From assembly GCF_001306055.1 (NCBI RefSeq), contig NZ_LGHJ01000012.1, positions 240,001 to 272,000 on the forward strand: 32,000 nt of DNA. Direction: 5' to 3'. Within the stretch, counting starts at the first letter, position 1, and each line of letters opens with the position of its first letter. A program made the translations under genes and the position numbers. The stretch comes from Bellilinea caldifistulae (GTDB lineage: Bacteria; Chloroflexota; Anaerolineae; Anaerolineales; Anaerolineaceae). Shown here in pieces: positions 5,455 through 17,106 of this stretch. The notes below the pieces were generated by a model. That model made no database searches, was not told where the DNA came from, and saw nothing but the letters and a program-made list of their open reading frames with translations.

Positions 5455-6210
5455 ATGGCCGAGTGTATCTCCATCCGGAATTTCAACGTTGCTTTCGGCA
5501 ACACACTGGTGTTAAAAAATATTCATCTGGATATTCCCTGCGGTCAGATTACAGCGATCATGGGGCCGTCGGGCTGCGGCAAGACGACCCTTTTACGCAG
5601 TATCAACCGCTTTCTGGAATTGAGCGACCACGTCACCATTAAAGGCGAAATTCTTATAGACGGTCAAAATATTTACGACCCGCAAGTTGATCCCATTGAC
5701 ATCCGTTCCAAAGTTGGTCTGCTTGCCCAACGGCCCTTTTCATTGCCCATGTCCATCATCGACAATGTCGCCTACGGACTGCGCATTCACGGCATGGCGG
5801 ACGGAAAAGACTTGCACCGAGCCGTCAGGCATTATCTGGAAATGGCAGGGCTGTGGGAGGAGGTCAAGGACAGGCTGCGGGAGCCGGCCGTCCGCCTGTC
5901 CATTGGGCAGCAGCAACGCCTGTGTCTGGCACGCGGGCTGGCAGTGGAACCGGAGATCATCCTCGCCGACGAACCAACCTCTGCGCTTGATCCGATTTCA
6001 GCACAAAACATTGAACAGCGACTGCTGGAACTGCGCGAAAAGTACACCATCGTGCTGGTAACCCATACGGTTCGGCAGGCCCGCCGGCTGGCGGATTATC
6101 TGGTCTTTATGTACCTTGGTGAAATGGTCGAGTGCGGCGAAGCGTCAGCCATTTTCTCCAACCCGCAACACGAGCTGACTCGCGCCTATCTTCACGGGGC
6201 AATCGGCTGA
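5455..6210 (+). CDS. pstB: phosphate ABC transporter ATP-binding protein PstB
   Basis: Walker A GPSGCGKTT, signature LSIGQQQRL, Walker B ILADEPTSALD, H-loop VTHT. The length (251 aa) and the N-terminal 'I.N..V.FG' pattern are typical of PstB. Confidence 0.95.
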   Translation: MAECISIRNFNVAFGNTLVLKNIHLDIPCGQITAIMGPSGCGKTTLLRSINRFLELSDHVTIKGEILIDGQNIYDPQVDPIDIRSKVGLLAQRPFSLPMSIIDNVAYGLRIHGMADGKDLHRAVRHYLEMAGLWEEVKDRLREPAVRLSIGQQQRLCLARGLAVEPEIILADEPTSALDPISAQNIEQRLLELREKYTIVLVTHTVRQARRLADYLVFMYLGEMVECGEASAIFSNPQHELTRAYLHGAIG

Positions 6211-6255
6211 GGTTGATTTCTCTGCCAACTGGCTTGTCGGCGCAGCCTTCCTCTT

Positions 6256-7575
6256 TTATTTTCTGACAAGCGGCAGGTAAACCAGCTCAGCATTGGCGCT
6301 GAACCAGACCCTGTCACACTGCGCCCACACCCCGGCAACCACCTCACCACTGGCGGCCATCTCTCCGCCGGAATTATCCGAACTGCATGATTCGGAATAA
6401 ATCAGACGCTCCCCTTTGATCGGGTCATAAATAAACACCTGCCGTGGTTCGCTGGACTGGGGCTGCCTTTTGTAAGCCATCACAAAACCTCCGCCGGCCG
6501 GCACCATCTCCAGTTCGCGTTCCGAATAGGTGTTATTGGTGATTTGCGTAATCATACCCGCCGCATCCCGCAGCCAAACCTCGGAAGTAGCCGAAATGGT
6601 GTTGTTCCTCAAAAAGCCGATCAGGTAGGCATTGTTCACCCCAACCAGATGCACATCCCCCAGCCGATAGGCACCGCCGGACAGTGTCAATTTCATTTCC
6701 CCACTCCAATCGGTGTTGTCCACTTTGATGTTCTGGTGGTAAATCTCATCATCACTGCCGGAATTATCCTTGACATAGGCAAACGCAACCCGCTCACTGC
6801 CGGCTGTTGAGTAGGTGGTAATGGCAGGCGGATTGAGCAGGTCGCTATCGGCGATCAGCAAGATGCGGTTTTGGGTCATGTTTCCGCTACCATCGGTGGT
6901 ACGGTTGGAGGCATACAGAACACGGCCGGTGCCCGGAGCGCCCCTGGCATACCAGATCACATGCAGGTAGCCGGCCGAATCAACCACACCTTCAACCGTT
7001 CTAACCATCGGGTCGGAGCTTTCCGAGTTCACTTTTCCTCTTTCACTTCCACTGCTCACTTTCTCATAACGCAGCGTGTACTGAGTACCTTCTTGTTTTG
7101 AATAGATCACATAGCCGGTACTGCCGCGGGTGATGACTTTGACTATCGGGCTGAAACTATCCGGGGGATTGTCAGAAAAATCTGGAGTACAGACAACATC
7201 CACTGATGAGGGATAAATCTTGATACAAATGCGGTACTTTGGGGATGAAGCGTCATACTTTTCGTACCACGCAAGGATTACAGTCCCATCAGCCAGCACA
7301 CCGATTTCAGGAGCGGCCGGCCACCAACCCGTTATGAGACGAATCGGCTGCTTATCCTCGATTATGCCCAATCTGGTACGCAGATAGACAAGTTGATGGG
7401 TAGTGGGATCTTCGCCGACGATATGTTTTGTACCCTGGGAATCCACCGCAATCGCCAGCAGATAATTGGCTGCCAGATCATTGAGGGGATGAGGGGGCAT
7501 GAAGGTGATTGTGCAGGCCGCCAACAGGCTGATTACAGCCACAAGGACACTGAATTTGAAAAGGTGCTTAAACAT
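6256..7575 (-). CDS. hypothetical lipoprotein, repeat-rich all-beta (propeller-like)
   Basis: Signal peptide plus lipobox (VISLLAAC). About 8 recurring strand motifs of the form G-x-hydrophobic-x-hydrophobic-aromatic (GTVILAWYEK, GYVIYSKQ, GYLHVIWYARG, RVAFAYVKDN, AYLIGFLRNN, GFVMAYKRQ, VVAGVWAQ) spaced about 45-60 aa apart. Confidence 0.7.
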   Translation of the reverse strand: MFKHLFKFSVLVAVISLLAACTITFMPPHPLNDLAANYLLAIAVDSQGTKHIVGEDPTTHQLVYLRTRLGIIEDKQPIRLITGWWPAAPEIGVLADGTVILAWYEKYDASSPKYRICIKIYPSSVDVVCTPDFSDNPPDSFSPIVKVITRGSTGYVIYSKQEGTQYTLRYEKVSSGSERGKVNSESSDPMVRTVEGVVDSAGYLHVIWYARGAPGTGRVLYASNRTTDGSGNMTQNRILLIADSDLLNPPAITTYSTAGSERVAFAYVKDNSGSDDEIYHQNIKVDNTDWSGEMKLTLSGGAYRLGDVHLVGVNNAYLIGFLRNNTISATSEVWLRDAAGMITQITNNTYSERELEMVPAGGGFVMAYKRQPQSSEPRQVFIYDPIKGERLIYSESCSSDNSGGEMAASGEVVAGVWAQCDRVWFSANAELVYLPLVRK

Positions 7576-7825
7576 AAAAAATCTCCCTTCGTCTGGTCAA
7601 CGGCGATGACCACCCCGTTTACCCCTACCCCTAAACGAGAAGAGATTTTGTGAACCCTCAATTAATAAAACCTGACTTGCTCAATTTCATAATACAACAA
7701 AATCAATGGATTATTTCTTAACAAATCGAGAGAATTTTGGACGGAACGGGCTGAAGATTTGCAGAAAGCAATTGAACCCTCGGCAGGTTGCCAAAGCGGG
7801 TCATCCGGTGTATAAAGAACCAAAT

Positions 7826-8908
7826 ATGACCTCAAAAGGACAATTTCACGCCGTCATCCTGTGGATTGCAGTCGGGGTTTTGCTTCTCGTTCAGGCAGGG
7901 CAGGCCAGCGCCGTAAAAATTACCGCCCCGCCCCTCAATCGTCTTCCGCAGGAAAGGCTTTGTACGGGCAGTTTTTTGCCGGTCAGTCTGCCTCTCACCG
8001 ATTTGGGCAACCATGAATACATCCGCATGGACGGCAACTCGACCGGTTTTACAGGCGGCCTGTACCCCAACGGCGAAAACCAGCCCCCTGCCGCTCACTG
8101 GCTTGCCGGCAGGCTCATTGCTCAGCAGATTGTCCCGCTGGATTCAAACGGCAGTCCCGATTTTCGCAACGGCAAAATTGGGATGATTTCGGTGGGTATG
8201 TCGAATACGGCAATGGAATTTTCCACCTTTCGCAGCCTGGTGATGACCGATAGCCGCCTGAATCCGCATCTGGTACTGGTCAACGGCGCCCAGGCCGGTC
8301 AGACGGCGGAGTACTGGCTGAGTCTCGATTCACCAACCTGGGAAGTGGTCAACCAACGCCTGGAATCCGCCGGTTTATCACCCCAGCAGGTTCAGGTAGT
8401 CTGGCTCAAGCTGACCCGCACCGGCGGTGGAAACTTCCCCCAAAAAGCCCAAACCCTGCAAGCCGACCTGACCACCATTGTCCAAAATTTAAAAGTTAAG
8501 TACCCGCAAGTCAAAATGGTCTTTCTTTCCAGTCGCACCCGTTCCTATACCTACTGGAACGGGCTCAGCCCGGAGCCGGCCGCATTTGAAAGCGGTTTTG
8601 CCGTCAAGTGGCTGATCGAGGAACAAATCAGCGGCACGCCGGACTTAAATTACGACCCTCAACGCGGAGCGGTGCGCGCGCCCTACCTGATGTGGGCAGC
8701 CTATCTGTGGGCTGACGGCATCAACCCCCGCGAGGATGGTTTTATCTGGCTGCCGGAGGATCTGGTGAGCGATTGTACTCACCCCTCGGACGCCGGCCGG
8801 TTAAAAGTAGCCCGGTTGCTTTTACAATTTTTTACCAGCGATCCGGCCGCAACCCCCTGGTTTTTGACTTCCTATCCGCTCTTTCTGCCGCTGGTAACCC
8901 ACCCGTGA
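7826..8908 (+). CDS. hypothetical secreted protein, possibly an SGNH-like hydrolase
   Basis: I chose the internal ATG at 7826, which gives a signal peptide ILWIAVGVLLLVQAGQASA. GMISVGMSNT resembles SGNH block I and DCTHPS resembles block V (DxxH). The CDS call is solid but the functional call is weak (about 0.35). Confidence 0.6.
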   Translation: MTSKGQFHAVILWIAVGVLLLVQAGQASAVKITAPPLNRLPQERLCTGSFLPVSLPLTDLGNHEYIRMDGNSTGFTGGLYPNGENQPPAAHWLAGRLIAQQIVPLDSNGSPDFRNGKIGMISVGMSNTAMEFSTFRSLVMTDSRLNPHLVLVNGAQAGQTAEYWLSLDSPTWEVVNQRLESAGLSPQQVQVVWLKLTRTGGGNFPQKAQTLQADLTTIVQNLKVKYPQVKMVFLSSRTRSYTYWNGLSPEPAAFESGFAVKWLIEEQISGTPDLNYDPQRGAVRAPYLMWAAYLWADGINPREDGFIWLPEDLVSDCTHPSDAGRLKVARLLLQFFTSDPAATPWFLTSYPLFLPLVTHP

Positions 8909-9537: not shown

Positions 9538-10305
9538 TCAGGATTGCTTTTTTGCCCGAGTTGGCTTGTCAGGGCGTTTTTTGGGCGGTGAAGTAACCGC
9601 TTCGTCCTCTTTTTCCAGTACAACTCGCAGTCTGGCAGCGCTTTGCACCTGAAAGACCAGCGTTTGACCGGATAATAAACTGGCTTCGCGGCGGTCAAAA
9701 CCTTTTTTACCCACCGAAACCAGCAAGGGTTGATCGGGGCGGTATGTGGAGGGCGGCCGCTCGCCTTTGGCTTTGGCGCCTTTTTCCACCTTTCCCTGCT
9801 CCGGCAAGGGCGGCATCACCACTTTGAGCGCCATCTCAGCTTTGTTCAAGAGATCGGCAACACGGTAAACGCCGGGACGCAGAGGAGTGACCGTAAAAAA
9901 GTCACCCGCCGGAATTTGTTCAGCGTGATTCAGGAGCACCTGTTTTTCCTTGCTACCCAGCCGAATAATCCGAACCTGGAAGGTGGAAACGCCTCGTGAG
10001 CTGTAAAAACCCAGCACCCCACCGGTGTGCAGCCGCAGGTCGGCATCCTCGCGACAGCAATCCCGTTCTGTTGGATTCTTAATCGTAGAGAGATCAAGAT
10101 TGTGCTGATACGGAGCATCCCCATCCACCACCGTGACCACCAGACGAAGTGGAGTACGGTTGGTGCGGCTGATGAATACCTCGTAATCCCCCGCTTCCTG
10201 GAAGTGATGGATCAAGGTAGAAAGCACGCTGATTTGGGTGCTATCGAAAGAGCGTTGAGCGAATAACGCCCGGTTCAATGTAGCTTGTTTTTGATTACTA
10301 GTCAT
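9538..10305 (-). CDS. hypothetical protein, gene 3 of a 3-gene operon (beta-rich, basic tail)
   Basis: GGAGG lies 7 nt upstream of the ATG and inside the end of the preceding gene, with a 3-nt intergenic gap. Two beta-rich halves are joined by a Lys/Pro/Gly linker (PPLPEQGKVEKGAKAKGERPPSTYRPDQP). C-terminal basic tail SPPKKRPDKPTRAKKQS. No family recognised. Confidence 0.8.
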   Translation of the reverse strand: MTSNQKQATLNRALFAQRSFDSTQISVLSTLIHHFQEAGDYEVFISRTNRTPLRLVVTVVDGDAPYQHNLDLSTIKNPTERDCCREDADLRLHTGGVLGFYSSRGVSTFQVRIIRLGSKEKQVLLNHAEQIPAGDFFTVTPLRPGVYRVADLLNKAEMALKVVMPPLPEQGKVEKGAKAKGERPPSTYRPDQPLLVSVGKKGFDRREASLLSGQTLVFQVQSAARLRVVLEKEDEAVTSPPKKRPDKPTRAKKQS

Positions 10306-10308
10306 CGC

Positions 10309-11283
10309 TTAACCTCCAACATCCGCTTGCACGACCATTTCGACATCATCTACCCGCACAAATAGATTGCGAACCGGAACGGTCACCGCCACCAGTTCAA
10401 CTGGCGAACCGCTCAACAGCACCGAAGTACTGATTTCTTTTGCCAGTACCTCCAGCGGGTCATCCACGCGGATCAACGGCACACACGCCCCGAAGAATTC
10501 ACCCACCAGTTGAATGAGCAGGTCTCCCAACCCAAAACTGATGTTGAACAAATCGCTCAGCCACTCGTCAATTTCATCGGGGATATCCAGCAGCCAGCGG
10601 ATGAAATCGGCAATACCGCCGATGATGGCGAGAATCAAATCGCGCACCCAGCCGCCGGGCAGCAGCGCCGTCACTGCGGCGGTCAGCGCGTTTTCAATCA
10701 GGTTGCCGACAATGTCGGCAAAGTCGAACAGGTCAAGGTCAATGAAATCCGGGTTGAGGAAAATATGCCACTGATTATGGTCAGGAAAGGGATCAATGAC
10801 GCTGGCGTTCACCAGTAAATCCCTCAACAAGCCGCAGGGGTCAATCAACGGCGGCGGTATACTGGCATCGTAATAGCGCACCACCGGACGTCCGGCGACG
10901 CTCAATTCCTGCGCCACAAAAGCGGCCAGATCCGGTGAAATGGACACATCCGGGTTGGCGGAGAAGACACACCAGCGCGGCAGACAGATATCCGGGAACG
11001 GCCACGGCATATCAATACATCCGCCGCCCACGCAAATTTCGGGAATATCCAGCCCAAGGGTGAACTGAAACATATCCCAGCGCACATCCAGTTCATCCAC
11101 CAGCACCGAATTGTCGGAGCGGAAATCCACACTGCCCCCTTCCAGATGCCCCTTGACGTGATAGCCGGCGGTAAACGGGCCAAAACTGGTGCTGTCCTGT
11201 GCTTCCCAACGGATGCTATCGCGCAGCACCACAAACAAACGCTGAAAAGCACTTTCGGATACGGCAACGGTCAGGTCAGCCAT
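10309..11283 (-). CDS. hypothetical acidic Cys-containing protein, gene 2 of a 3-gene operon
   Basis: AGGAGG upstream of the ATG, with only 2 nt between the upstream stop (TAA) and the ATG. The N-terminal block DLTVAVSESAFQRLFVVLRD parallels gene 1. Contains a hydrophobic/amphipathic stretch LTAAVTALLPGGWVRDLILAIIGGIADFIRWLL. No signal peptide and no family recognised. Confidence 0.8.
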   Translation of the reverse strand: MADLTVAVSESAFQRLFVVLRDSIRWEAQDSTSFGPFTAGYHVKGHLEGGSVDFRSDNSVLVDELDVRWDMFQFTLGLDIPEICVGGGCIDMPWPFPDICLPRWCVFSANPDVSISPDLAAFVAQELSVAGRPVVRYYDASIPPPLIDPCGLLRDLLVNASVIDPFPDHNQWHIFLNPDFIDLDLFDFADIVGNLIENALTAAVTALLPGGWVRDLILAIIGGIADFIRWLLDIPDEIDEWLSDLFNISFGLGDLLIQLVGEFFGACVPLIRVDDPLEVLAKEISTSVLLSGSPVELVAVTVPVRNLFVRVDDVEMVVQADVGG

Positions 11284-11285
11284 GA

Positions 11286-12224
11286 TTATGCACCTCCTGT
11301 GATGATCAATTTCATAAATGCTTTGAGCTGATCCTCTTCAACCGCCGGGTTGTTGGGCACATCCGCCGGAACAGCAGAGGGTTGCAGCGTCACGGTCCTG
11401 CCGAGCGTCAAACCCATTTCCTGAAATTCTTTATTGACGTCCAGCACCATTTTTTCCAGCGGGATGATCAGCCGCGGCAGGATGCCCAGCTTGAGAACGG
11501 TGGTCAGGTAACATTCGATGGCGCTTTCCATGTCGTTGGGTTGCATGTCCACGATTTCCAGACCGTCCAGGCGGGTTTTGAGCCAGATTTGCTGGGAGCC
11601 GGGTACGCTACCCCACTCAAAATGTCCCACAGCAAACAGTTCCAGACAGAAGCAGATCAGCTGGCGGGTTGGCAGGGGAATGGTGCGGGGTCTTTCACGG
11701 TTATCCACTGCTGCCACGGGGGGAGTGTAGTGAGTGGAGATCCCCGGAACGCGCTCTTTGATTTCGCCGATGGCCAGTTGCTGCTGAGAAACCAGGAAAC
11801 GTTCGATGAGTGGCAGCAATTCGTCAATGATCTCCTTTGATGGACAGTCAATTCCCATACAGCCTTTCAGGCGCAGGGCAAACCGCTGAGCCGGCAGCGC
11901 CCCCAGTTCCGGCGGCAGCCCAAAAACATTGCCGGGGTGAAAATCAATCTGGGCATCGGTCAATTGCAGACAAAAGTTCAAACCAATTGGCACAGGTGCC
12001 CCCAGAATGGGCAACGGTTCCTGCTCGGTAAACAGCGGATTTTTCGCCTTCAACACCCTCTCATCCACCTCGAACTTTACGCAAAACAATCCCGCATTGT
12101 TGTGAAAAAAGGGTGTTGCGTAATTGAACAGCGAGGGACGCTGGCGCATGATGTGGCGCACCAGCCGGTTGATGCCGTCCTCATGGACGGCGCCGAACAG
12201 ATCTGAATGATCGGTAAACGGCAT
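11286..12224 (-). CDS. hypothetical protein, gene 1 of a 3-gene operon (paralogue of gene 2)
   Basis: I chose the ATG at 12224 (MPFTDHS...) because GGAGG sits 5 nt upstream; the ORF-track start at 12248 would place that SD inside the coding region. N-terminal block DLFGAVHEDGINRLVRHIMR. No signal peptide and no family recognised. Confidence 0.8.
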   Translation of the reverse strand: MPFTDHSDLFGAVHEDGINRLVRHIMRQRPSLFNYATPFFHNNAGLFCVKFEVDERVLKAKNPLFTEQEPLPILGAPVPIGLNFCLQLTDAQIDFHPGNVFGLPPELGALPAQRFALRLKGCMGIDCPSKEIIDELLPLIERFLVSQQQLAIGEIKERVPGISTHYTPPVAAVDNRERPRTIPLPTRQLICFCLELFAVGHFEWGSVPGSQQIWLKTRLDGLEIVDMQPNDMESAIECYLTTVLKLGILPRLIIPLEKMVLDVNKEFQEMGLTLGRTVTLQPSAVPADVPNNPAVEEDQLKAFMKLIITGGA

Positions 12225-12262
12225 AGGAACCTCCATTTTTCTGAACAAGGGTGGAATAGCCC

Positions 12263-12285
12263 TCTCAACTGTGAGAAAGTTGAGA
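12263..12285. promoter_or_regulatory. perfect 8-bp inverted repeat (TCTCAACT-N7-AGTTGAGA) about 40 nt upstream of the 3-gene operon start
   Basis: Read directly from the sequence. Its position between the leader hairpin and the SD of the operon suggests an operator or RNA stem. Function unknown. Confidence 0.3.
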
Positions 12286-12330
12286 TGCTCGACTTTGCTG
12301 TGGATCGGGAATGGAGCAGGGGTGGAGAAT

Positions 12331-12358
12331 CAAAACACGCGGGTTCATCCCCGCGTGT
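12331..12358 (-). terminator. GC-rich hairpin followed by TTTT on the minus strand (intrinsic-terminator-like) upstream of the 3-gene operon
   Basis: ACACGCGGG (12335-12343) pairs perfectly with CCCGCGTGT (12350-12358) around a 6-nt loop. The plus-strand AAAA at 12332-12335 reads as a U-tract on the minus strand. The tract is only 4 U, so this is a moderate call. Confidence 0.4.
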
Positions 12359-12395
12359 CTCTCGTCAATATATGGATAATAACCCAGTCGAGTTG

Positions 12396-12424
12396 TTGAC
12401 TATTTTTATCATCAATATCATAAT
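12396..12424 (+). promoter_or_regulatory. sigma70-like promoter reading rightward (TTGACT-17-CATAAT)
   Basis: -35 TTGACT at 12396-12401, exact 17-nt spacer, -10 CATAAT at 12419-12424, in an AT-rich (~33% GC) spacer. Confidence 0.4.
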
Positions 12425-12588
12425 ACTACTATCTCATGCTCATTTCAACCCCTAATTTTTGTCGGGTTTGTAACAAAAACGGTTGGCAAATTCATGACTG
12501 GTAGTGTCCGGGGTTTAAAGACCAACCATCCGCTACATGTCCAGTTTCTCAATCTGTTTTACTAAAACCCACCAGCTTTGTGACAGAC

Positions 12589-12802
12589 TCATCCATGCTC
12601 CTCTTTTGCAAAAAAGGTGAGGAAGATTTCGATCTCAGCGACAACCGTTTCTGCCGGATGACATTTGTTATGATAAAGAATATACTGCCTGACCCAGTGA
12701 AGATAGGTTTTTTTCAATGCTGTAAGGATAATGCTTCAAGCGAATGGCATCTCAAAGCTGGTCGAGAAGTTTTTTGGGTTTTGGAGAGAATGGATCGGGC
12801 AT
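12589..12802 (-). pseudogene. N-terminal stump (~70 codons) of an IntI-type / Phage_int_SAM_4 tyrosine recombinase, inactivated
   Basis: The minus-strand translation is MPDPFSPKPKKLLDQL*DAIRLKHYPYSIEK, then a frameshift in an A7 run, then TYLHWVRQYILYHNKCHPAETVVAEIEIFLTFFAKEEHG*. It matches the remembered IntI1 N-terminus [53 protein letters not shown]. The TGA at 12752-12754 replaces the conserved Arg. No catalytic domain follows. Confidence 0.7.
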
Positions 12803-12957
12803 AAAAACAGCTAAAACTTTTCCATGATTGGATATATAATCCATACAGTAATAATTCTACTCAGAGCATATCTGACAACCCGGCATCATAGCAGTATAAC
12901 CCGCTTTTTTGGTCTGGATATATGGCAAAAATGCAGTGTATCAGAAGTCCGTTAATA

Positions 12958-12999: not shown

Positions 13000-15900
13000 A
13001 TGACTGAACCTCAATCTGTAGACTTGAATCCGAAGATTCGCCGCACCGTCAATGCCGCGCTCGTTTTATGGACCCGCCGACTCATCGACTACTCGCGAGC
13101 CAACTCCCTCCTCTTCTACCGCGACCTCAAGGTTGGCACTCTCGACCTAACTGCGGAGACGGAGGCTGTGGACCGTCTGCTGGCAGGCGACAAACTCACA
13201 GTTGAGTCACTGGTCTCGACAGGCCGGTACGCAGAGAGCCCTGACCCCGCCGTACGTACCCAAGCCGAGGACGAGGTACGCCAGAAGGTACGGAGCGCGC
13301 TCATCTCGCTCCTGCGCAAGGCGTTGAGCAACCTCGAGGAGAAAGGCATCGAGACGCTCCACCTGGCAATGGGGATGGCTACATGGCCCGCCGACGATGG
13401 TGGGCGGCCGTACGATGCGCCCGTGCTGCTGCTACCGGCCCGAATCGAGGCACGCGGCCGGGCGGGCGACGACCTGCGACTCGCGGTTGCGGGCGAGCCA
13501 CAAATAAACCCGGTACTTCTGTATGTGCTCGAGGAGAAATACGAGATCCGCATCGACGCGTCCTCAGTGCTGAGCATGTGCGGCGGCGAAGACGAATCAG
13601 GGCAGTGTCGTATCGACCTAGAGAAAGTGTTTGAGCACATCGAACATGCGGCTACAAGCGTACCGGGCTTCAGGATAACGCAGCGTGTGGTCCTGGCTAA
13701 CTTTCAGTACGCGAAGATGGCTATGGTCGAGGATCTGAAGAGGAACGGGGACATTATAGCTTCGAGCACCATCGTTGCGGCTGTCGCCGGCCATTCGCTT
13801 TCACGACAGAAGCTGGCCCAAGCGGCGATCGATATCGCGCCAGCCCAGATCGATGACCGCCCGGCGTCCGACGACTACCTGGTGCTCGATGCGGACTCCA
13901 CGCAGCACCGCGCCATCGTGCTTGTCGGCAAAGGGCAGAACGGTGTCATACAAGGGCCACCGGGAACTGGCAAGAGCCAAACCATCTCGAATCTCATCGC
14001 TCAGAGCGTGGCCGAGGGGCGCCGCGTGCTCTTCGTCGCACAGAAGCGGGCGGCGCTGGATGCGGTCATCAAGCGGCTTAGCCATCCGGATGTGGGGCTT
14101 GGTCATCTAGTGCTCGATCTACACGGTGCATCTGTGTCGCGGAAGGAGGTGATGGCGCGGCTTGCAGATGCATTGGAGCAGATACGTATTGCGCTGCCTG
14201 CTGACGGGGTCGAGGCACTTCACCGCGAATTTGAGGTTCGGCGCAAGCAATTAAACGAACACGCACGTCGGGTAAACCAGATTCGCCAACCGACGGGACT
14301 TTCTGTGAACCAGATGGTTGGCAGACTGCTCCGCCTGCCGGCAGCGGCGAAGTCCACGCTTCGACTCCGTGGACAGACACTGGCCGCGCTCACGGCTGAG
14401 CGCGCAAGCGAGGTAAAGCAGTGGATCCAACAGGCTGCTGCCAACCCGACTCTCTTCCTCGGCACAGATCCCTCGTCGTGGAACAACGCGGATATAAGGG
14501 ACGGTCGCGGCGCACAGGAAGCCCTAGACCTGGCCACCAAAGCAGCCAACGAGCTCTGGCCTGAGTTCGAGCGGCTTCTCGAACAGGTAGTGAACCAGCT
14601 TGGCGTCCGGCCACCGAATACGCTCAGTGAGGTTGCTGTGTTCCTGTCCCTTCTCCGTGATGCGGGAAGCATTCGCCAGCAGTACAGTGCCGAGTTTTTC
14701 TCATCAAAGCCTGGCGAGTTGGGGACGGCACTCCAGCCCGCGGCGGCCGGATGGGTCACCCGCGCCTGGGCGTTCCTGAGCAACCCGGTGTACCGCGCTG
14801 CGCGCAAACGCCTGCTCGCATTGCGCACGGAACCGGCACCGGTCGCAACGTTGCGAGAAGAGGCGTTACGAGCCGAGGATATCCTCCGCCGTTGGCAGAC
14901 CCTTGCCCCAACCTCGGCCGTGCCTGTTCGGGCGGATGCTGAAATGGAACTAAGTGCTGCGTTCAACGCCCTTGACGAGGTGACAAAGAAACTTGGGGCC
15001 ATGACGGAAGCAGGGCCGTTTGACGGCATGCAGCTTTCGTCGGCGGGCTCACGGTTGCGGGCGCTCGCAGACGACCGACAGACCCCGTTCCGCTTACCAA
15101 GCATCTACGATCTTCGATCGCTGTTCAGCAAGGCGAATCTCGTCGGTTTTATTGATGATCTCCGCAAGCACGGTGTTGCTGCCGAGCACTGGTCGGCGCG
15201 ATTCGAGTACATCTGGCTTTACTCGGCGCTGGAGCAAGCGTTGGCATCCGATCCATCTCTTGCTTCATTCAACGGCCGAGCACACGAACAGGTCATCGAG
15301 GAGTTCAAGCGTTTGGATCATGAACGCATCCGCCTCGCTGCCCAGCGCGTGCGCAGAGTCCACGCCGAGCGAGCGATCGAGGCGATGAACCGCCACTTCG
15401 ATCAGGCAGATCTGGTTCGGAGAGAGGCTGCCAAGAAGTCACGACACATTCCGCTGCGCGAATTGTTGGCCCGCGCGCCTGATGTTCTCACTGGGATCGC
15501 ACCTTGCTGGGTCGCAAGCCCACTTTCGGTTAGCCAACTGCTGGATGGCAGCAAGAGGCACTTCGACCTCGTCATCTTCGACGAGGCAAGTCAGATCCTT
15601 CAAGAGGAGGCGATCCCCGCGCTCTACCGCGCGGAGCAAGTGGTTGTTGCCGGTGATCGGCACCAATTGCCTCCCACGACGTTCTTTGTGACAGCTGTCG
15701 AGGGCGAGGACGAAAGCCTCGATGACAATGAGACGGACCAGCCTGTCGCCGCGATTGGTGGGTTTGAGAGCTTGCTCGACACGCTGGAAGCCTTCCTGCC
15801 GAACTGGCTCTTGGAGTGGCACTACCGTAGCGAGGACGAGCGGCTCATCACTTTCAGCAACACCCATGTGTACACGGGGCGCCTCGTAACCTTTCCGGGC

Positions 15901-17106
15901 GCGCGTGGTCAGGAGGCAATTCGGCACATTCTTGTACCGCACGACCCCGCGTTAGGTGGACAGGAGGAAAGTGCATCGCGGGAAGTCGAGGAGGTTGTGA
16001 GTCAGGCGATTCTGCACGCGGAAACGCGGCCACACGAGTCCCTCGGTGTCATCACTATGGGCATCAAGCACGCAAACCGCATACAGGCTGCTCTAGACCG
16101 CGCCCTCGACCTCCGGCCCGATCTGTCGGATTTCTTCTCACTGGACCGCGAAGAGCGTTTCTTTGTCAAGAACCTAGAGACCGTGCAGGGCGATGAGCGT
16201 GATGCCATCATCTTGTCGATCGGCTATGGCAAAACGGCAAATGGCGATCTGCCACACCGCTTTGGTCCGCTCACGCAGGACGTCGGTTACCGCCGCCTGA
16301 ACGTGGCCATCACTCGGGCGAGGCGCCGGATGTGCGTCATAAGTTCCTTTTCGCACGATGAGATCGATCTGAATCGCTCCGGGAGTCGGGGCGTACAACT
16401 GCTCAAAGCGTATCTGCAGTACGCTGCTAGTGGAGGCACGCGTCTGCCTGAGGACGAGAGCGCGGGAGAAGTTAGTCTCAATGCATTTGAGGCCGATGTC
16501 CGCGACGCTTTGGAGGCTCAGGGCGTCAAGACGCGACCACAGTTTGGCGCGTCTCGCTATCGCATTGATCTGGTCGCCATGCATCCAAAGAAGCCGGGTC
16601 GGCCGGTTCTCGCGATCGAATGCGATGGGGCATCTTATCATTCGAGCGCCACTGCGCGGGACCGCGATCGACTTAGGCAAGCCCATCTCCAGCGGCTGGG
16701 CTGGCGATTCCACCGCATCTGGTCGACCGACTGGTTCTACCACCGCGAGCAAGAGATTGAGCGCGCAATTGCGGCATACGAGGAGGCTGTTCGCTGGGCG
16801 GATTTATCGGACGCCGGTGGCCGCACCCCGCAAGCTGTGGGCAGTACTCAGCCCATGAGGCAGGCTCAGCAGCAACCAACCGGGCGGCAGCGGGGACCAC
16901 GGCCGCCCGTGCCGGTGCGCGAGACAATCGACCAATACAGCAACCGCGAATTGCGGCAGATCGCCGCGTGGGTCACATCCGACGGTTTGCTACGTACGGA
17001 CGAGGAACTCATCCGCGAGATTTTTGAGGCACTGCCATTTGAGCGGCTAGGCAGCAGAATAAGAGAGCGCCTTAAGACAGTCGTGAAGGCCGTGCGACGG
17101 CATTAG
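13000..17106 (+). CDS. SF1 (Upf1/Dna2-like) helicase fused to a Vsr/DUF559-like PD-(D/E)xK nuclease domain and a DUF3320-type C-terminal tail (DUF4011-family architecture)
   Basis: Walker A GPPGTGKSQT (nt 13954-13983). Motif II LVIFDEASQ (DEASQ at nt 15580-15594). Motif III VVAGDRHQLPPT. Also WHYRSEDERLITFSN, TVQGDERDAIILS and motif VI RRLNVAITRARRRMCVI. Nuclease-like block RYRIDLVAM...VLAIECDGASYHSS...RLGWRFHRIWSTDW (about nt 16477-16749). C-terminal DQYSNRELRQIAAWVTSDGLLRTDEELIREIFEAL. About 530 aa are inserted between Walker A and motif II, as in DUF4011 helicases. Confidence 0.9.
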   Translation: MTEPQSVDLNPKIRRTVNAALVLWTRRLIDYSRANSLLFYRDLKVGTLDLTAETEAVDRLLAGDKLTVESLVSTGRYAESPDPAVRTQAEDEVRQKVRSALISLLRKALSNLEEKGIETLHLAMGMATWPADDGGRPYDAPVLLLPARIEARGRAGDDLRLAVAGEPQINPVLLYVLEEKYEIRIDASSVLSMCGGEDESGQCRIDLEKVFEHIEHAATSVPGFRITQRVVLANFQYAKMAMVEDLKRNGDIIASSTIVAAVAGHSLSRQKLAQAAIDIAPAQIDDRPASDDYLVLDADSTQHRAIVLVGKGQNGVIQGPPGTGKSQTISNLIAQSVAEGRRVLFVAQKRAALDAVIKRLSHPDVGLGHLVLDLHGASVSRKEVMARLADALEQIRIALPADGVEALHREFEVRRKQLNEHARRVNQIRQPTGLSVNQMVGRLLRLPAAAKSTLRLRGQTLAALTAERASEVKQWIQQAAANPTLFLGTDPSSWNNADIRDGRGAQEALDLATKAANELWPEFERLLEQVVNQLGVRPPNTLSEVAVFLSLLRDAGSIRQQYSAEFFSSKPGELGTALQPAAAGWVTRAWAFLSNPVYRAARKRLLALRTEPAPVATLREEALRAEDILRRWQTLAPTSAVPVRADAEMELSAAFNALDEVTKKLGAMTEAGPFDGMQLSSAGSRLRALADDRQTPFRLPSIYDLRSLFSKANLVGFIDDLRKHGVAAEHWSARFEYIWLYSALEQALASDPSLASFNGRAHEQVIEEFKRLDHERIRLAAQRVRRVHAERAIEAMNRHFDQADLVRREAAKKSRHIPLRELLARAPDVLTGIAPCWVASPLSVSQLLDGSKRHFDLVIFDEASQILQEEAIPALYRAEQVVVAGDRHQLPPTTFFVTAVEGEDESLDDNETDQPVAAIGGFESLLDTLEAFLPNWLLEWHYRSEDERLITFSNTHVYTGRLVTFPGARGQEAIRHILVPHDPALGGQEESASREVEEVVSQAILHAETRPHESLGVITMGIKHANRIQAALDRALDLRPDLSDFFSLDREERFFVKNLETVQGDERDAIILSIGYGKTANGDLPHRFGPLTQDVGYRRLNVAITRARRRMCVISSFSHDEIDLNRSGSRGVQLLKAYLQYAASGGTRLPEDESAGEVSLNAFEADVRDALEAQGVKTRPQFGASRYRIDLVAMHPKKPGRPVLAIECDGASYHSSATARDRDRLRQAHLQRLGWRFHRIWSTDWFYHREQEIERAIAAYEEAVRWADLSDAGGRTPQAVGSTQPMRQAQQQPTGRQRGPRPPVPVRETIDQYSNRELRQIAAWVTSDGLLRTDEELIREIFEALPFERLGSRIRERLKTVVKAVRRH

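Follow-up and report, generated by a model that had tools for sequence, protein, structure and literature searches.

A conserved three-gene unit of Bellilinea caldifistulae encoding two signal-less, putatively BPI/TULIP-like proteins and a predicted beta-sandwich partner

Lipid transfer by TULIP proteins inside the cell is regarded as a eukaryotic feature, and the complexes of E-Syt and ERMES, in which SMP domains are combined with C2 domains, are cytoplasmic TULIP homo- or hetero-oligomers equipped with beta-sandwich domains that bind membranes. Among the TULIPs described from bacteria in the papers cited here, the families with a predicted location lie outside the cytoplasm, and the OrfX and P47 proteins are tied to toxin clusters. 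TULIP folds have been predicted for the bacterial families YceB/DUF1439, DUF4403, DUF2140, and DUF2993, and all of the bacterial families whose locations were predicted by Levine are extracytoplasmic (PMC6791001); the OrfX and P47 proteins of BoNT clusters are released with the toxin complex (PMC7020563). Precedents for TULIPs with operon-encoded partners are found in OrfX1-OrfX3 and in TipA with its beta-sandwich partner TipB, and this TULIP-sandwich relationship has been suggested to recur in diverse bacteria (bioRxiv 10.1101/2025.09.09.675085). TipA is secreted into prey, and its crystallised form was the mature protein lacking the signal peptide; an N-terminal beta-strand that locks helix A is considered a hallmark of double-TULIPs (Caulton et al., bioRxiv 10.1101/2025.09.09.675085). 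Barrio-Hernandez et al. describe BPI-like proteins from bacteria that are full-length double-TULIPs (TM 0.81 to human BPI); these form a different group and were set aside as candidate relatives of the proteins described below.

The present study concerns a 32,000-nt stretch of the Bellilinea caldifistulae genome (GCF_001306055.1, contig NZ_LGHJ01000012.1, 240,001-272,000 of the forward strand), hereafter the window, to which all coordinates refer. Three genes lie on its minus strand: g1 (11286-12224, 312 aa), g2 (10309-11283, 324 aa), and g3 (9538-10305, 255 aa), with gaps of 2 nt between g1 and g2 and 3 nt between g2 and g3. The ATG of each is preceded by GGAGG at a distance of 6-9 nt, which for g2 and g3 is embedded in the last codons of the gene before, and the start of g1 was placed at its ATG rather than at an upstream TTG (12248) because its homologues begin M-P/A-F-T-D. 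The g3 stop codon is 5 nt from that of the convergent msrA (PF01625), and no convincing terminator was found in the interval between them. The layout thus agrees in its open reading frames, sizes, spacing, Shine-Dalgarno (SD) motifs, and terminator-less end beside msrA with the original prediction, which had been made from the DNA letters alone.

Upstream of g1, a consensus scan recovered a promoter-like site, TTGAAA-17 nt-TATTAT (12420..12448, minus strand, 10/12 matches), both hexamers of which are kept in Bellilinea and Anaerolinea relatives, and which we consider the predicted promoter of the triad. Between this site and g1 lies a conserved, structured 5′ leader (12284..12415, minus strand), supported by an alignment of 7 loci. 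Its elements are a GC-rich hairpin of 12 bp with a U-run after it (~12332-12361) and a long-range helix, CUCGAC/GUCGAG. The RNAalifold structure has compensatory pairs, with 93.6% of cells paired and a covariation score that was reached by 6/500 shuffles, and RNAfold gave z = -3.26. The leader has no match in Rfam; its covariance model (R1) matched only upstream of triads and only in Anaerolineaceae, and a search of other phyla with the same model found no copy outside of that family.

The order g1-g2-g3, which had been put forward as a candidate uncharacterised system, recurs intact in ~45 non-redundant loci from at least 8 phyla (Chloroflexota, Deinococcota, Armatimonadota, Acidobacteriota, Planctomycetota, Actinomycetota, Bacteroidota, and Proteobacteria), with cultured Anaerolinea thermophila (BAJ64676, BAJ64677, and BAJ64679) and B. 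caldifistulae (BECAL_03327-03329) among the hosts. Median gaps across these loci are 3 and 2 nt, and an SD-like motif precedes g2 in 40/45 and g3 in 41/45 of them. An order and spacing shared so widely far exceed what chance would produce. The triad is scattered patchily among phyla, and its Anaerolineae copies are 65-68% identical to those of Deinococcota or Acidobacteriota, a combination that suggests horizontal transfer between phyla. Opposite charges of the second and third proteins are a family-wide property (pI ~4.1 for g2, ~9.3-9.7 for g3). The N-termini of all three families are conserved from Met1, and a hydrophobic, signal-like N-terminal segment is absent in at least 99% of their members, in keeping with the earlier observation that the proteins have no signal peptides.

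None of the three proteins has an accepted family match in Pfam, NCBIfam, PADLOC, or PHROGs, so their description as unrecognisable stands, and sequence and profile searches of the PDB returned nothing meaningful. The curated TULIP families (BPI1/2, JHBP, SMP, P47, DUF1439, DUF4403, DUF2140, and DUF2993) gave no Pfam or NCBIfam match to the window proteins at E <= 1, nor any match to 80 and 82 family members. Foldseek against BFVD found no viral relatives, tblastn found no phage or plasmid copies, and a literature search by accession numbers found no paper. None of the outcomes named beforehand as speaking against a new system appeared: no confident characterised homologues were found, and the genes co-occur in other genomes.

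The g1 family comprises 762 homologue clusters, all labelled 'hypothetical' and without Pfam domains. The AF2 model of g1 (pLDDT 89.3, pTM 0.81) is predicted to be a BPI/TULIP-like alpha/beta wrap that opens with a strand (residues 9-14) and a helix (15-28), and a variable disordered linker occupies residues ~147-180. Foldseek against the PDB placed BPI first (E = 5e-5, probability 1.0) and ranked LBP, OrfX3, JHBP, P47, and SPLUNC1 after it, and 11 of the 12 best PDB matches were TULIP-superfamily proteins. These matches support a structural resemblance of g1 to solved TULIP proteins at the level of the fold only, the TM-scores to BPI being low (0.33 and 0.25).

The g2 family (421 clusters) has a mean column identity of 72% across phyla. 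The window protein is very acidic, as had been noted (pI 4.05; family median 4.06). Its AF2 model (pLDDT 76.9) likewise begins with a strand (residues 2-9) and a helix (10-23), so that the models of both proteins show an N-terminal strand followed by helix A, and a BPI/TULIP-like fold is probable for g2 as well. Its best Foldseek match was again BPI (E = 0.023, probability 0.85; none at E <= 0.001), with further matches to CETP, LBP, OrfX3, Der f 7, OrfX2, and, weakly, Mdm12, and with low TM-scores to BPI (0.27 and 0.21). Residues 189-267 form strongly hydrophobic, amphipathic, and highly conserved helices that were modelled with low confidence (pLDDT 40-57 for the central helices) and that may insert into a membrane or line a cavity. 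A 21-residue HutF_N match in g2 (E = 0.004-0.036) was dismissed as a chance hit. The likeness to BPI/TULIP folds, including OrfX/P47, had been offered as speculation; Foldseek now returns TULIP proteins for g1 and g2, with OrfX3, OrfX2, and P47 among them, which upholds the guess at fold level with low TM-scores. The low TM-scores, the weak g2 E-values, the low confidence of the central g2 helices, and the lack of a sequence or profile link to any Pfam TULIP family or PDB TULIP count against reading the triad as a lipid-binding complex.

The proposal that g1 and g2 are diverged paralogues fared less well. BLASTP aligned them at E = 0.11, outside of the blocks on which the proposal was based, and hhalign gave probabilities of 0.1-1.6% across several settings and two alignment sets. 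Permissive hhalign did bring the IDFHPGN/VDFRSDN block, along with the Cx4C motifs beside it, into register, in a match that was not significant. Paralogy is therefore not confirmed and is without statistical sequence support, being favoured only by the shared fold class and these weak, collinear motifs.

The third protein, g3, is basic (pI 9.74), carries a basic tail, and belongs to a family of at least 526 representatives (E <= 1e-3). It had been described as two beta-rich halves joined by a Lys/Pro linker and ending in a basic tail. The tail is present; the division into halves needs correcting. The internal repeat pairs residues ~17-49 with ~122-154 (hhalign probability 67%, E = 5e-5), no more than a short third beta unit lies past the linker, and that linker is confined to one clade. 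Weak matches to Cupredoxin_1, CarboxypepD_reg, PKD, and Big-like domains occur in a few family members, and weak PDB profile matches were to plastocyanin (E = 0.068), an intracellular proteinase inhibitor, and filamin. Judged by these similarities, g3 is probably a beta-sandwich-like protein with an internally repeated core. A few distant homologues carry HhH-like tails that score below Pfam thresholds, and two metagenome scans for the genomic context of these homologues found nothing.

We tentatively favour, at somewhat short of an even chance, the reading that the three proteins make up a TULIP-like heteromer without signal peptides, one that includes an adaptor subunit and has a lipid or another hydrophobic molecule as its ligand. 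The three genes would be co-translated as a self-contained module that has a promoter and a leader of its own, and their products would assemble into a hetero-oligomer that is probably cytoplasmic or membrane-peripheral. Within it, g1 and g2 would be compact BPI/TULIP-like alpha/beta-wrap proteins with a putative cavity for the hydrophobic ligand, and g3 would be a beta-sandwich adaptor whose basic tail may dock the complex on a polyanionic surface, candidates being an acidic membrane, the very acidic g2, or nucleic acid. Such an arrangement would be comparable to that of C2 domains with SMP/TULIP domains, or of TipB with TipA. In favour of this reading are the conserved order, short gaps, and SD-like motifs of the triad across phyla, its autonomy, the Foldseek matches of g1 and g2, the strand and helix A that open both models, the precedents of OrfX1-OrfX3 and TipA/TipB, and the opposite charges of g2 and g3. 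A bolder version, which we consider rather unlikely, would make the triad the first hetero-oligomeric TULIP machine of the bacterial cytoplasm that lacks signal peptides, composed of two TULIP-like families not modelled before and a beta-sandwich adaptor. It would be a prokaryotic counterpart of lipid-transfer complexes of the ERMES or E-Syt type, would move or store a hydrophobic molecule within the cell, and would be tethered to the membrane or nucleoid by the g3 tail; much of Chloroflexota would have conserved it, with exchange between at least 8 phyla.

The pattern of invariant residues opens another, improbable reading, by which the proteins would form a metal- or redox-dependent complex, or one associated with polyanions or nucleic acid, such as a Zn or Fe-S scaffold or an enzyme, with the Cys and acidic residues as its core and a superficial resemblance to TULIPs. 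Five Cys of g1 (C48, C122, C127, C191, and C238) are invariant in 45/45 loci, as are ~12 Asp/Glu of g2 and the four Cys of its patch, C84-x4-C89-x10-C100-x4-C105, a Cys-rich segment correctly singled out beforehand. Invariant Cys in a reducing cytoplasm are usually metal ligands, a role that would suit proteins without signals that presumably reside there. The low TM-scores to BPI, the msrA neighbour in the Bellilinea clade, weak RdgC-like Foldseek matches, and the basic g3 tails, swapped for HhH-like domains in rare homologues, are also consistent with this reading. Against it, the top Foldseek matches of two independently modelled proteins are consistently TULIPs, no metal-binding or enzymatic family was matched in Pfam or NCBIfam, the Cx4C spacing is atypical of classical Zn or Fe-S motifs, and the HhH matches fall below Pfam thresholds. 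About a dozen invariant acidic residues and nine invariant Cys go unexplained by simple lipid binding and count against the lipid-complex reading. The HhH-like tails, few as they are, point to DNA and not to a membrane, and count against it likewise.

The surroundings of the triad bear on a further possibility, namely that it encodes a membrane-permeabilising toxin or an anti-phage or abortive-infection effector, BPI- or OrfX/P47-like, that is released by lysis or activated by infection. In the window, the triad adjoins a DUF4011-helicase/MTES_1575 nuclease gene and a frameshifted N-terminal integrase remnant of ~75 aa, and these neighbours speak for such a role, as do the closest structures (BPI, OrfX, and P47) in combination with the missing signal peptides, the conserved amphipathic and strongly hydrophobic helices of g2, and the patchy, cross-phylum distribution with its suggestion of horizontal transfer. 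We nonetheless hold this role to be decidedly improbable. The integrase stump was absent from every other triad locus searched by tblastn and the helicase from the triad loci of close relatives, whose homology to the window breaks off at ~12455, a few nucleotides before the promoter-like site on its upstream side; both are specific to this genome and lie outside of the module, and the supposed tie to the stump and its AT-rich spacer is incidental. An integron gene cassette was also considered and rejected, as relatives have no stump and the triad has its own conserved promoter-like site and leader. Across the ~45 loci, the triad is flanked by unrelated housekeeping genes with no recurrent neighbour: the 132 flanking ORFs fall into 118 different Pfam families of at most 3 members each, and Pfam and PADLOC scans of them showed only sporadic PADLOC matches and no enrichment in integrase, toxin, or defence genes. 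Neither a neurotoxin or insecticidal toxin gene nor any linked secretion-system gene was found in these flanks. Clustering of the flanking ORFs yielded no conserved fourth gene, and, in view of this and of the unrelated flanks, the triad is autonomous; in the Bellilinea clade it adjoins msrA. Further points against a toxin or defence role are that g1-g3 have no PADLOC or PHROG matches and no plasmid or phage copies, that the triad includes no sensor or NTPase component, and that a mean column identity of 72% in g2 is atypical for arms-race genes.

An envelope complex that handles lipids after non-classical export, with the conserved Cys as disulfides, is very unlikely: bacterial TULIP families with a predicted location are extracytoplasmic (PMC6791001), secreted proteins typically have many invariant Cys, and the g2 Cys patch has a weak, chance-level similarity to disulfide-rich peptides, but N-termini kept from Met1, the absence of a hydrophobic signal segment in at least 99% of members, and the lack of linked secretion-system genes all oppose it. 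The contrast between the signal-less triad and the bacterial TULIP families predicted to be extracytoplasmic and the OrfX/P47 proteins released with the toxin complex counts, for its part, against the lipid-complex reading.

If the favoured reading of a cytoplasmic or membrane-peripheral lipid-binding complex is true, intracellular lipid handling of the TULIP type would extend to bacteria, databases would gain two or three new protein families, and a three-protein system would become available for the study of adaptor-regulated TULIPs. Strongly conserved and autonomous, and without signal peptides, the triad combines two putatively TULIP-like proteins with a predicted beta-sandwich partner in hundreds of lineages. 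Should the lipid hypothesis fail, an unannotated three-gene unit whose g2 is so highly conserved across phyla would still mark a clear knowledge gap.

Among known systems, YceB/DUF1439, DUF4403, DUF2140, and DUF2993 are placed by prediction outside of the cytoplasm, as secreted, lipid-anchored, or TM-anchored proteins, whereas the triad has no signal peptides. The OrfX1-OrfX2-OrfX3/P47 clusters (8bgm, 9arj, 6ekt) are likewise multi-gene operons of TULIP-fold proteins, and OrfX3, OrfX2, and P47 are matched by g1 or g2 at fold level (E = 0.06-1.2); the triad differs from them in sizes and gene number, in having no sequence homology to the OrfX and P47 chains held in the PDB searched, in the absence of a linked toxin gene from ~45 loci, and in a third component that is predicted to be a beta-sandwich and not a TULIP. 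Mdm12 of ERMES is among the weak g2 matches, but SMP/C2 systems are eukaryotic, membrane-anchored, and without sequence relation to the triad, so the analogy is functional only. TipA/TipB of Bdellovibrio, likened here by description, also has a small, operon-encoded beta-sandwich partner, which regulates the TULIP protein; the triad lacks signal peptides and has two different TULIP-like subunits, and g3 is larger than TipB, internally repeated, and basic in its tail. The structures that g1 and g2 match best are BPI, LBP, and CETP (1bp1, 1ewf, 4m4d, 2obd); at 312 and 324 aa, g1 and g2 are shorter than these proteins (~456 aa), share no sequence or profile similarity with them, and reach TM-scores of at most 0.33. 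Unlike them, the triad has no signal peptides, is divided between two separate polypeptides with a third partner, and bears many invariant Cys and acidic residues; common to all, as far as the models of g1 and g2 indicate, are an N-terminal strand and helix A, after which come antiparallel strands that are long and curved, and helices that are likewise long.

The three minus-strand ORFs described in the original prediction as a tightly coupled operon were found on ORF inspection exactly as stated there, with g1 (312 aa) at 11286-12224, g2 (324 aa) at 10309-11283, and g3 (255 aa) at 9538-10305 in transcription order, separated by gaps of 2 and 3 nt, and with a GGAGG 6-9 nt ahead of every ATG, which for g2 and g3 lies within the final codons of the gene before. 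All three (BECAL_03329, 03328, and 03327; GAP12127, GAP12126, and GAP12125) are annotated 'hypothetical protein'. The start of g1 is the ATG at 12224, not the TTG at 12248, as homologues retain M1, F3, T4, and D5 with no or almost no variation. The predicted convergence with msrA (PF01625) also agreed with the window sequence, the stop codons of msrA and g3 being 5 nt apart with no convincing terminator between them. At the end of g2 (window 10309-10320), the …V-G-G/A-stop codons (GTTGGAGGTTAA) also serve as the g3 Shine-Dalgarno, a dual use of GGAG(G/C) that 41 of 45 loci share and that could account for the conserved '…GG(A)' ending noted earlier.

Further loci were gathered by a g2-motif scan of reference genomes and by looking up contigs that encode several homologues, and the ORFs from all 54 retrieved loci were searched with the g1, g2, and g3 family profiles. 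The conservation of the triad as a unit was upheld, as every locus not cut by a contig end had g1-g2-g3 in this order, with all three genes on one strand. Across the 45 non-redundant loci, the median gap was 3 nt for g1-g2 and 2 nt for g2-g3, and an SD-like motif preceded g2 in 40 and g3 in 41. In the type strain Anaerolinea thermophila UNI-1 (AP012029), an oppositely oriented IS66-family transposase gene (5889-6917) separates g1 (BAJ64679) from g2 (BAJ64677) and breaks their tight coupling, unlike in a related MAG locus, where the operon is uninterrupted; in Ca. Thermoflexus tengchongensis (locus L053, 6001-6917), g2 is represented by two overlapping ORFs of 186 and 237 aa, which points to a frameshifted pseudogene or else to an error of assembly. 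Carriers are mainly Chloroflexota (Anaerolinea, Bellilinea, Longilinea, Levilinea, Thermoflexus, Promineifilum, Ardenticatenaceae, and Chloroflexia). Outside that phylum, the triad occurs in MAGs classified as Deinococcota, Armatimonadota, Acidobacteriota, Planctomycetota, Actinomycetota, Bacteroidota, and Proteobacteria, and contigs 0.18-1.8 Mb long carry several of these copies. At 65-68% identity, certain copies from Deinococcota and Acidobacteriota resemble the window more closely than do some from Anaerolineae (52-54%), which suggests horizontal exchange.

Upstream of g1, ~200 nt are conserved across the Bellilinea and Anaerolinea loci although the genes further upstream differ, and this region includes a promoter-like site and a structured leader of ~190 nt (window 12284-12448, minus strand). 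From the conserved -35 and -10-like hexamers (12448-12420, minus strand), the region passes through a small hairpin, a terminator-like GC hairpin of 12 bp and its U-run (~12361-12332), a long-range helix (CUCGAC/GUCGAG, in which 3 of 7 sequences show a compensatory switch from C-G to U-A), and a further hairpin, after which comes the SD. In the RNAalifold consensus, 9 of 37 predicted pairs had compensatory changes, 93.6% of cells were paired, and the covariation score was reached by 6 of 500 shuffles; RNAfold gave z = -3.26. The leader had no match in Rfam, and its covariance model matched only upstream of triads in Anaerolineaceae (Bellilinea, Anaerolinea). The leader may act as an attenuator or in the manner of a riboswitch; a DNA operator formed by its AGTCGA inverted repeats is just as plausible.

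The proteins had been called unrecognisable, and they were: none of g1, g2, and g3 had a credible match in Pfam, NCBIfam, PADLOC, or PHROGs, or in single-sequence and profile searches of PDB sequences, and 80 g1 relatives and 82 g2 relatives scanned one by one gave no family match. Homologues of g1 formed 762 clusters at 90% identity and those of g2 421; a word-indexed search returned only 13 for g3, and exhaustive HMMER returned at least 526 representatives at 50% identity. Mean column identity is strikingly high in the g2 family (72%), intermediate in the g1 family (49%), and 19% over a wide set of g3 proteins, by which measure g3 is fast-evolving.

Structures were modelled using AlphaFold2 with family alignments and compared with the PDB using Foldseek. 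The g1 model was good (pLDDT 89.3, pTM 0.81) and that of g2 moderate (pLDDT 76.9, pTM 0.61), with low confidence in helices 189-267. For g1 the best match was human BPI (1bp1, 1ewf; E = 5-6e-5, probability 1.0), followed by LBP, OrfX3 from the OrfX1-OrfX3 complex, juvenile-hormone-binding proteins, P47, and SPLUNC1/BPIFA1; BPI was also best for g2 (E = 0.023, probability 0.85), with CETP, LBP, OrfX3, Der f 7, OrfX2, and Mdm12 at lower ranks. All of these listed matches belong to the TULIP superfamily of BPI-type lipid-binding folds, and both models open with a beta-strand and then helix A, the double-TULIP hallmark according to Caulton et al. (bioRxiv 10.1101/2025.09.09.675085). Since TM-scores were 0.33 at most, BPI is ~140 residues longer than either protein, and no g2 match reached E <= 0.001, the models support the earlier guess of a BPI/TULIP-type fold at fold level only. 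The claim that g1 and g2 are paralogues found no backing in sequence (BLASTP E = 0.11; hhalign probability 0.1-1.6%), though the two have a fold class in common. A permissive hhalign run paired IDFHPGN with VDFRSDN and, at similar spacing, g1 C122-x4-C127 with g2 C84-x4-C89, whereas other runs favoured an alternative alignment of g1 16-95 with g2 222-318; the two may be ancient duplicates, with paralogy unproven.

Invariant across the 45 loci are C48, C122, C127, C191, C238, H24, and several acidic residues in g1, and C84, C89, C100, C105, and about a dozen Asp/Glu in g2, including the motif D182-x-D184-x-F-D187-F-x-D190; with a pI of ~4.06 among family members, the acidity attributed to gene 2 holds family-wide. 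Hydrophobicity in g2 peaks at residues 216-234 (Kyte-Doolittle 1.86 against a family median of 2.06), a stretch that holds invariant D226 and R229 and may be a cavity-lining or a membrane-interacting helix.

For g3, some members had weak Cupredoxin_1, CarboxypepD_reg, PKD, and Big-like matches, and the family profile weakly matched plastocyanin, a beta-sandwich proteinase inhibitor, and filamin in the PDB. Residues 17-49 and 122-154 form an internal repeat with the motif 'fDS..L....PG.Y.V' (hhalign probability 67%, E = 5e-5). The basic tail described for gene 3 ends most family members (median pI 9.3), often with [RK]x[FYH]T[ILV]R[RK], but the Lys/Pro linker is restricted to the Bellilinea/Anaerolinea clade. 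Seven distant homologues (P0331, P0311, P0347, P0314, P0335, P0381, and P0387) instead carry C-terminal extensions: three have HhH-like domains (HHH_3, HHH_5/DUF4332) below Pfam thresholds, and four, which are acidic, haloarchaeon-like sequences, have a common helical tail ('VDP..L…SP.EL…NR..A..AIE.RL') that is SAP-like by eye only. These extensions hint that the g3 tail binds a polyanion such as DNA and that the family may reach Archaea; an acidic membrane, the acidic g2, or DNA may be the target. A long eukaryote-like repeat protein (P0278, 1688 aa) matched g3 profile residues 1-33 20 times (…SSPIQVLSTVVHS…) and looks like a spurious repeat match, not a relative.

By analogy with the OrfX1-OrfX3, TipA-TipB, and SMP-C2 systems, we tentatively favour a self-contained, co-translated, signal-less complex, in which g1 and g2 would be compact TULIP-like subunits, both binding a hydrophobic ligand, and g3 would be a beta-sandwich adaptor whose basic tail supplies docking. 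A complex that depends on metal or redox chemistry, or that associates with polyanions, to be weighed with the invariant cysteines and the g3 tails on one side and the consistently TULIP top Foldseek matches on the other, would make that likeness superficial and seems rather unlikely.

All-against-all clustering of flanking ORFs revealed no recurrent neighbour outside near-identical lineages. The 132 nearest neighbours, ordinary metabolic and transport genes, matched 118 different Pfam families with <=3 members each and had only sporadic PADLOC matches, and searches of plasmids and phages found no triad copies. The three genes make up a unit that is both conserved and autonomous. The integrase stump beside it, next to which the original prediction had the operon start, does exist: it comes from an integron/Xer-type integrase of which ~75 N-terminal residues remain (~12560-12815, minus strand), disrupted by a stop and a frameshift (…KKLLDQL*DAIRLKHYPYSIEK… then, frameshifted, …TYLHWVRQYILYHNKCHPAE…) within an AT-rich spacer (GC 0.45), but none of the related loci has it, and it is hence unrelated to the triad. 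Beyond it, a plus-strand gene at 13000-17106 encodes a protein of 1368 aa that combines DUF4011, an AAA_11/AAA_12 helicase (Upf1/DNA2-like), and a C-terminal, restriction-endonuclease-like MTES_1575 nuclease; GC around this gene is 0.59-0.62 against ~0.55 in its surroundings, and no DNA homology to the region was found in relatives' loci. As homology to close relatives stops at ~12455 and the stump peptide was found in no other locus, stump and helicase are an insertion particular to this genome that adjoins the module without belonging to it, and the helicase-nuclease gene is probably an inserted defence-type gene. Two other sizeable ORFs near the triad lack Pfam matches, one of 439 aa (6256-7575, minus strand) with a lipoprotein-like N-terminus (…LLAAC) and one of 400 aa (7706-8908, plus strand) with an internal hydrophobic segment. 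A BPI-like toxin or defence effector is an improbable reading of the triad.

A signal-like N-terminal hydrophobic segment is absent throughout the g1, g2, and g3 families, as predicted for the three window proteins, and an envelope complex, which would have to be exported by a non-classical route, is very improbable. Bacterial TULIP proteins and TULIP-plus-partner operons are already known (PMC6791001; PMC7020563; bioRxiv 10.1101/2025.09.09.675085; PMC10584675); the g1, g2, and g3 families are in none of the curated libraries searched, and we found no paper naming them. The triad differs from the known TULIP systems in being free of toxin-gene linkage, in having two different signal-less TULIP-like subunits, and in its third subunit, a putative repeated beta-sandwich.
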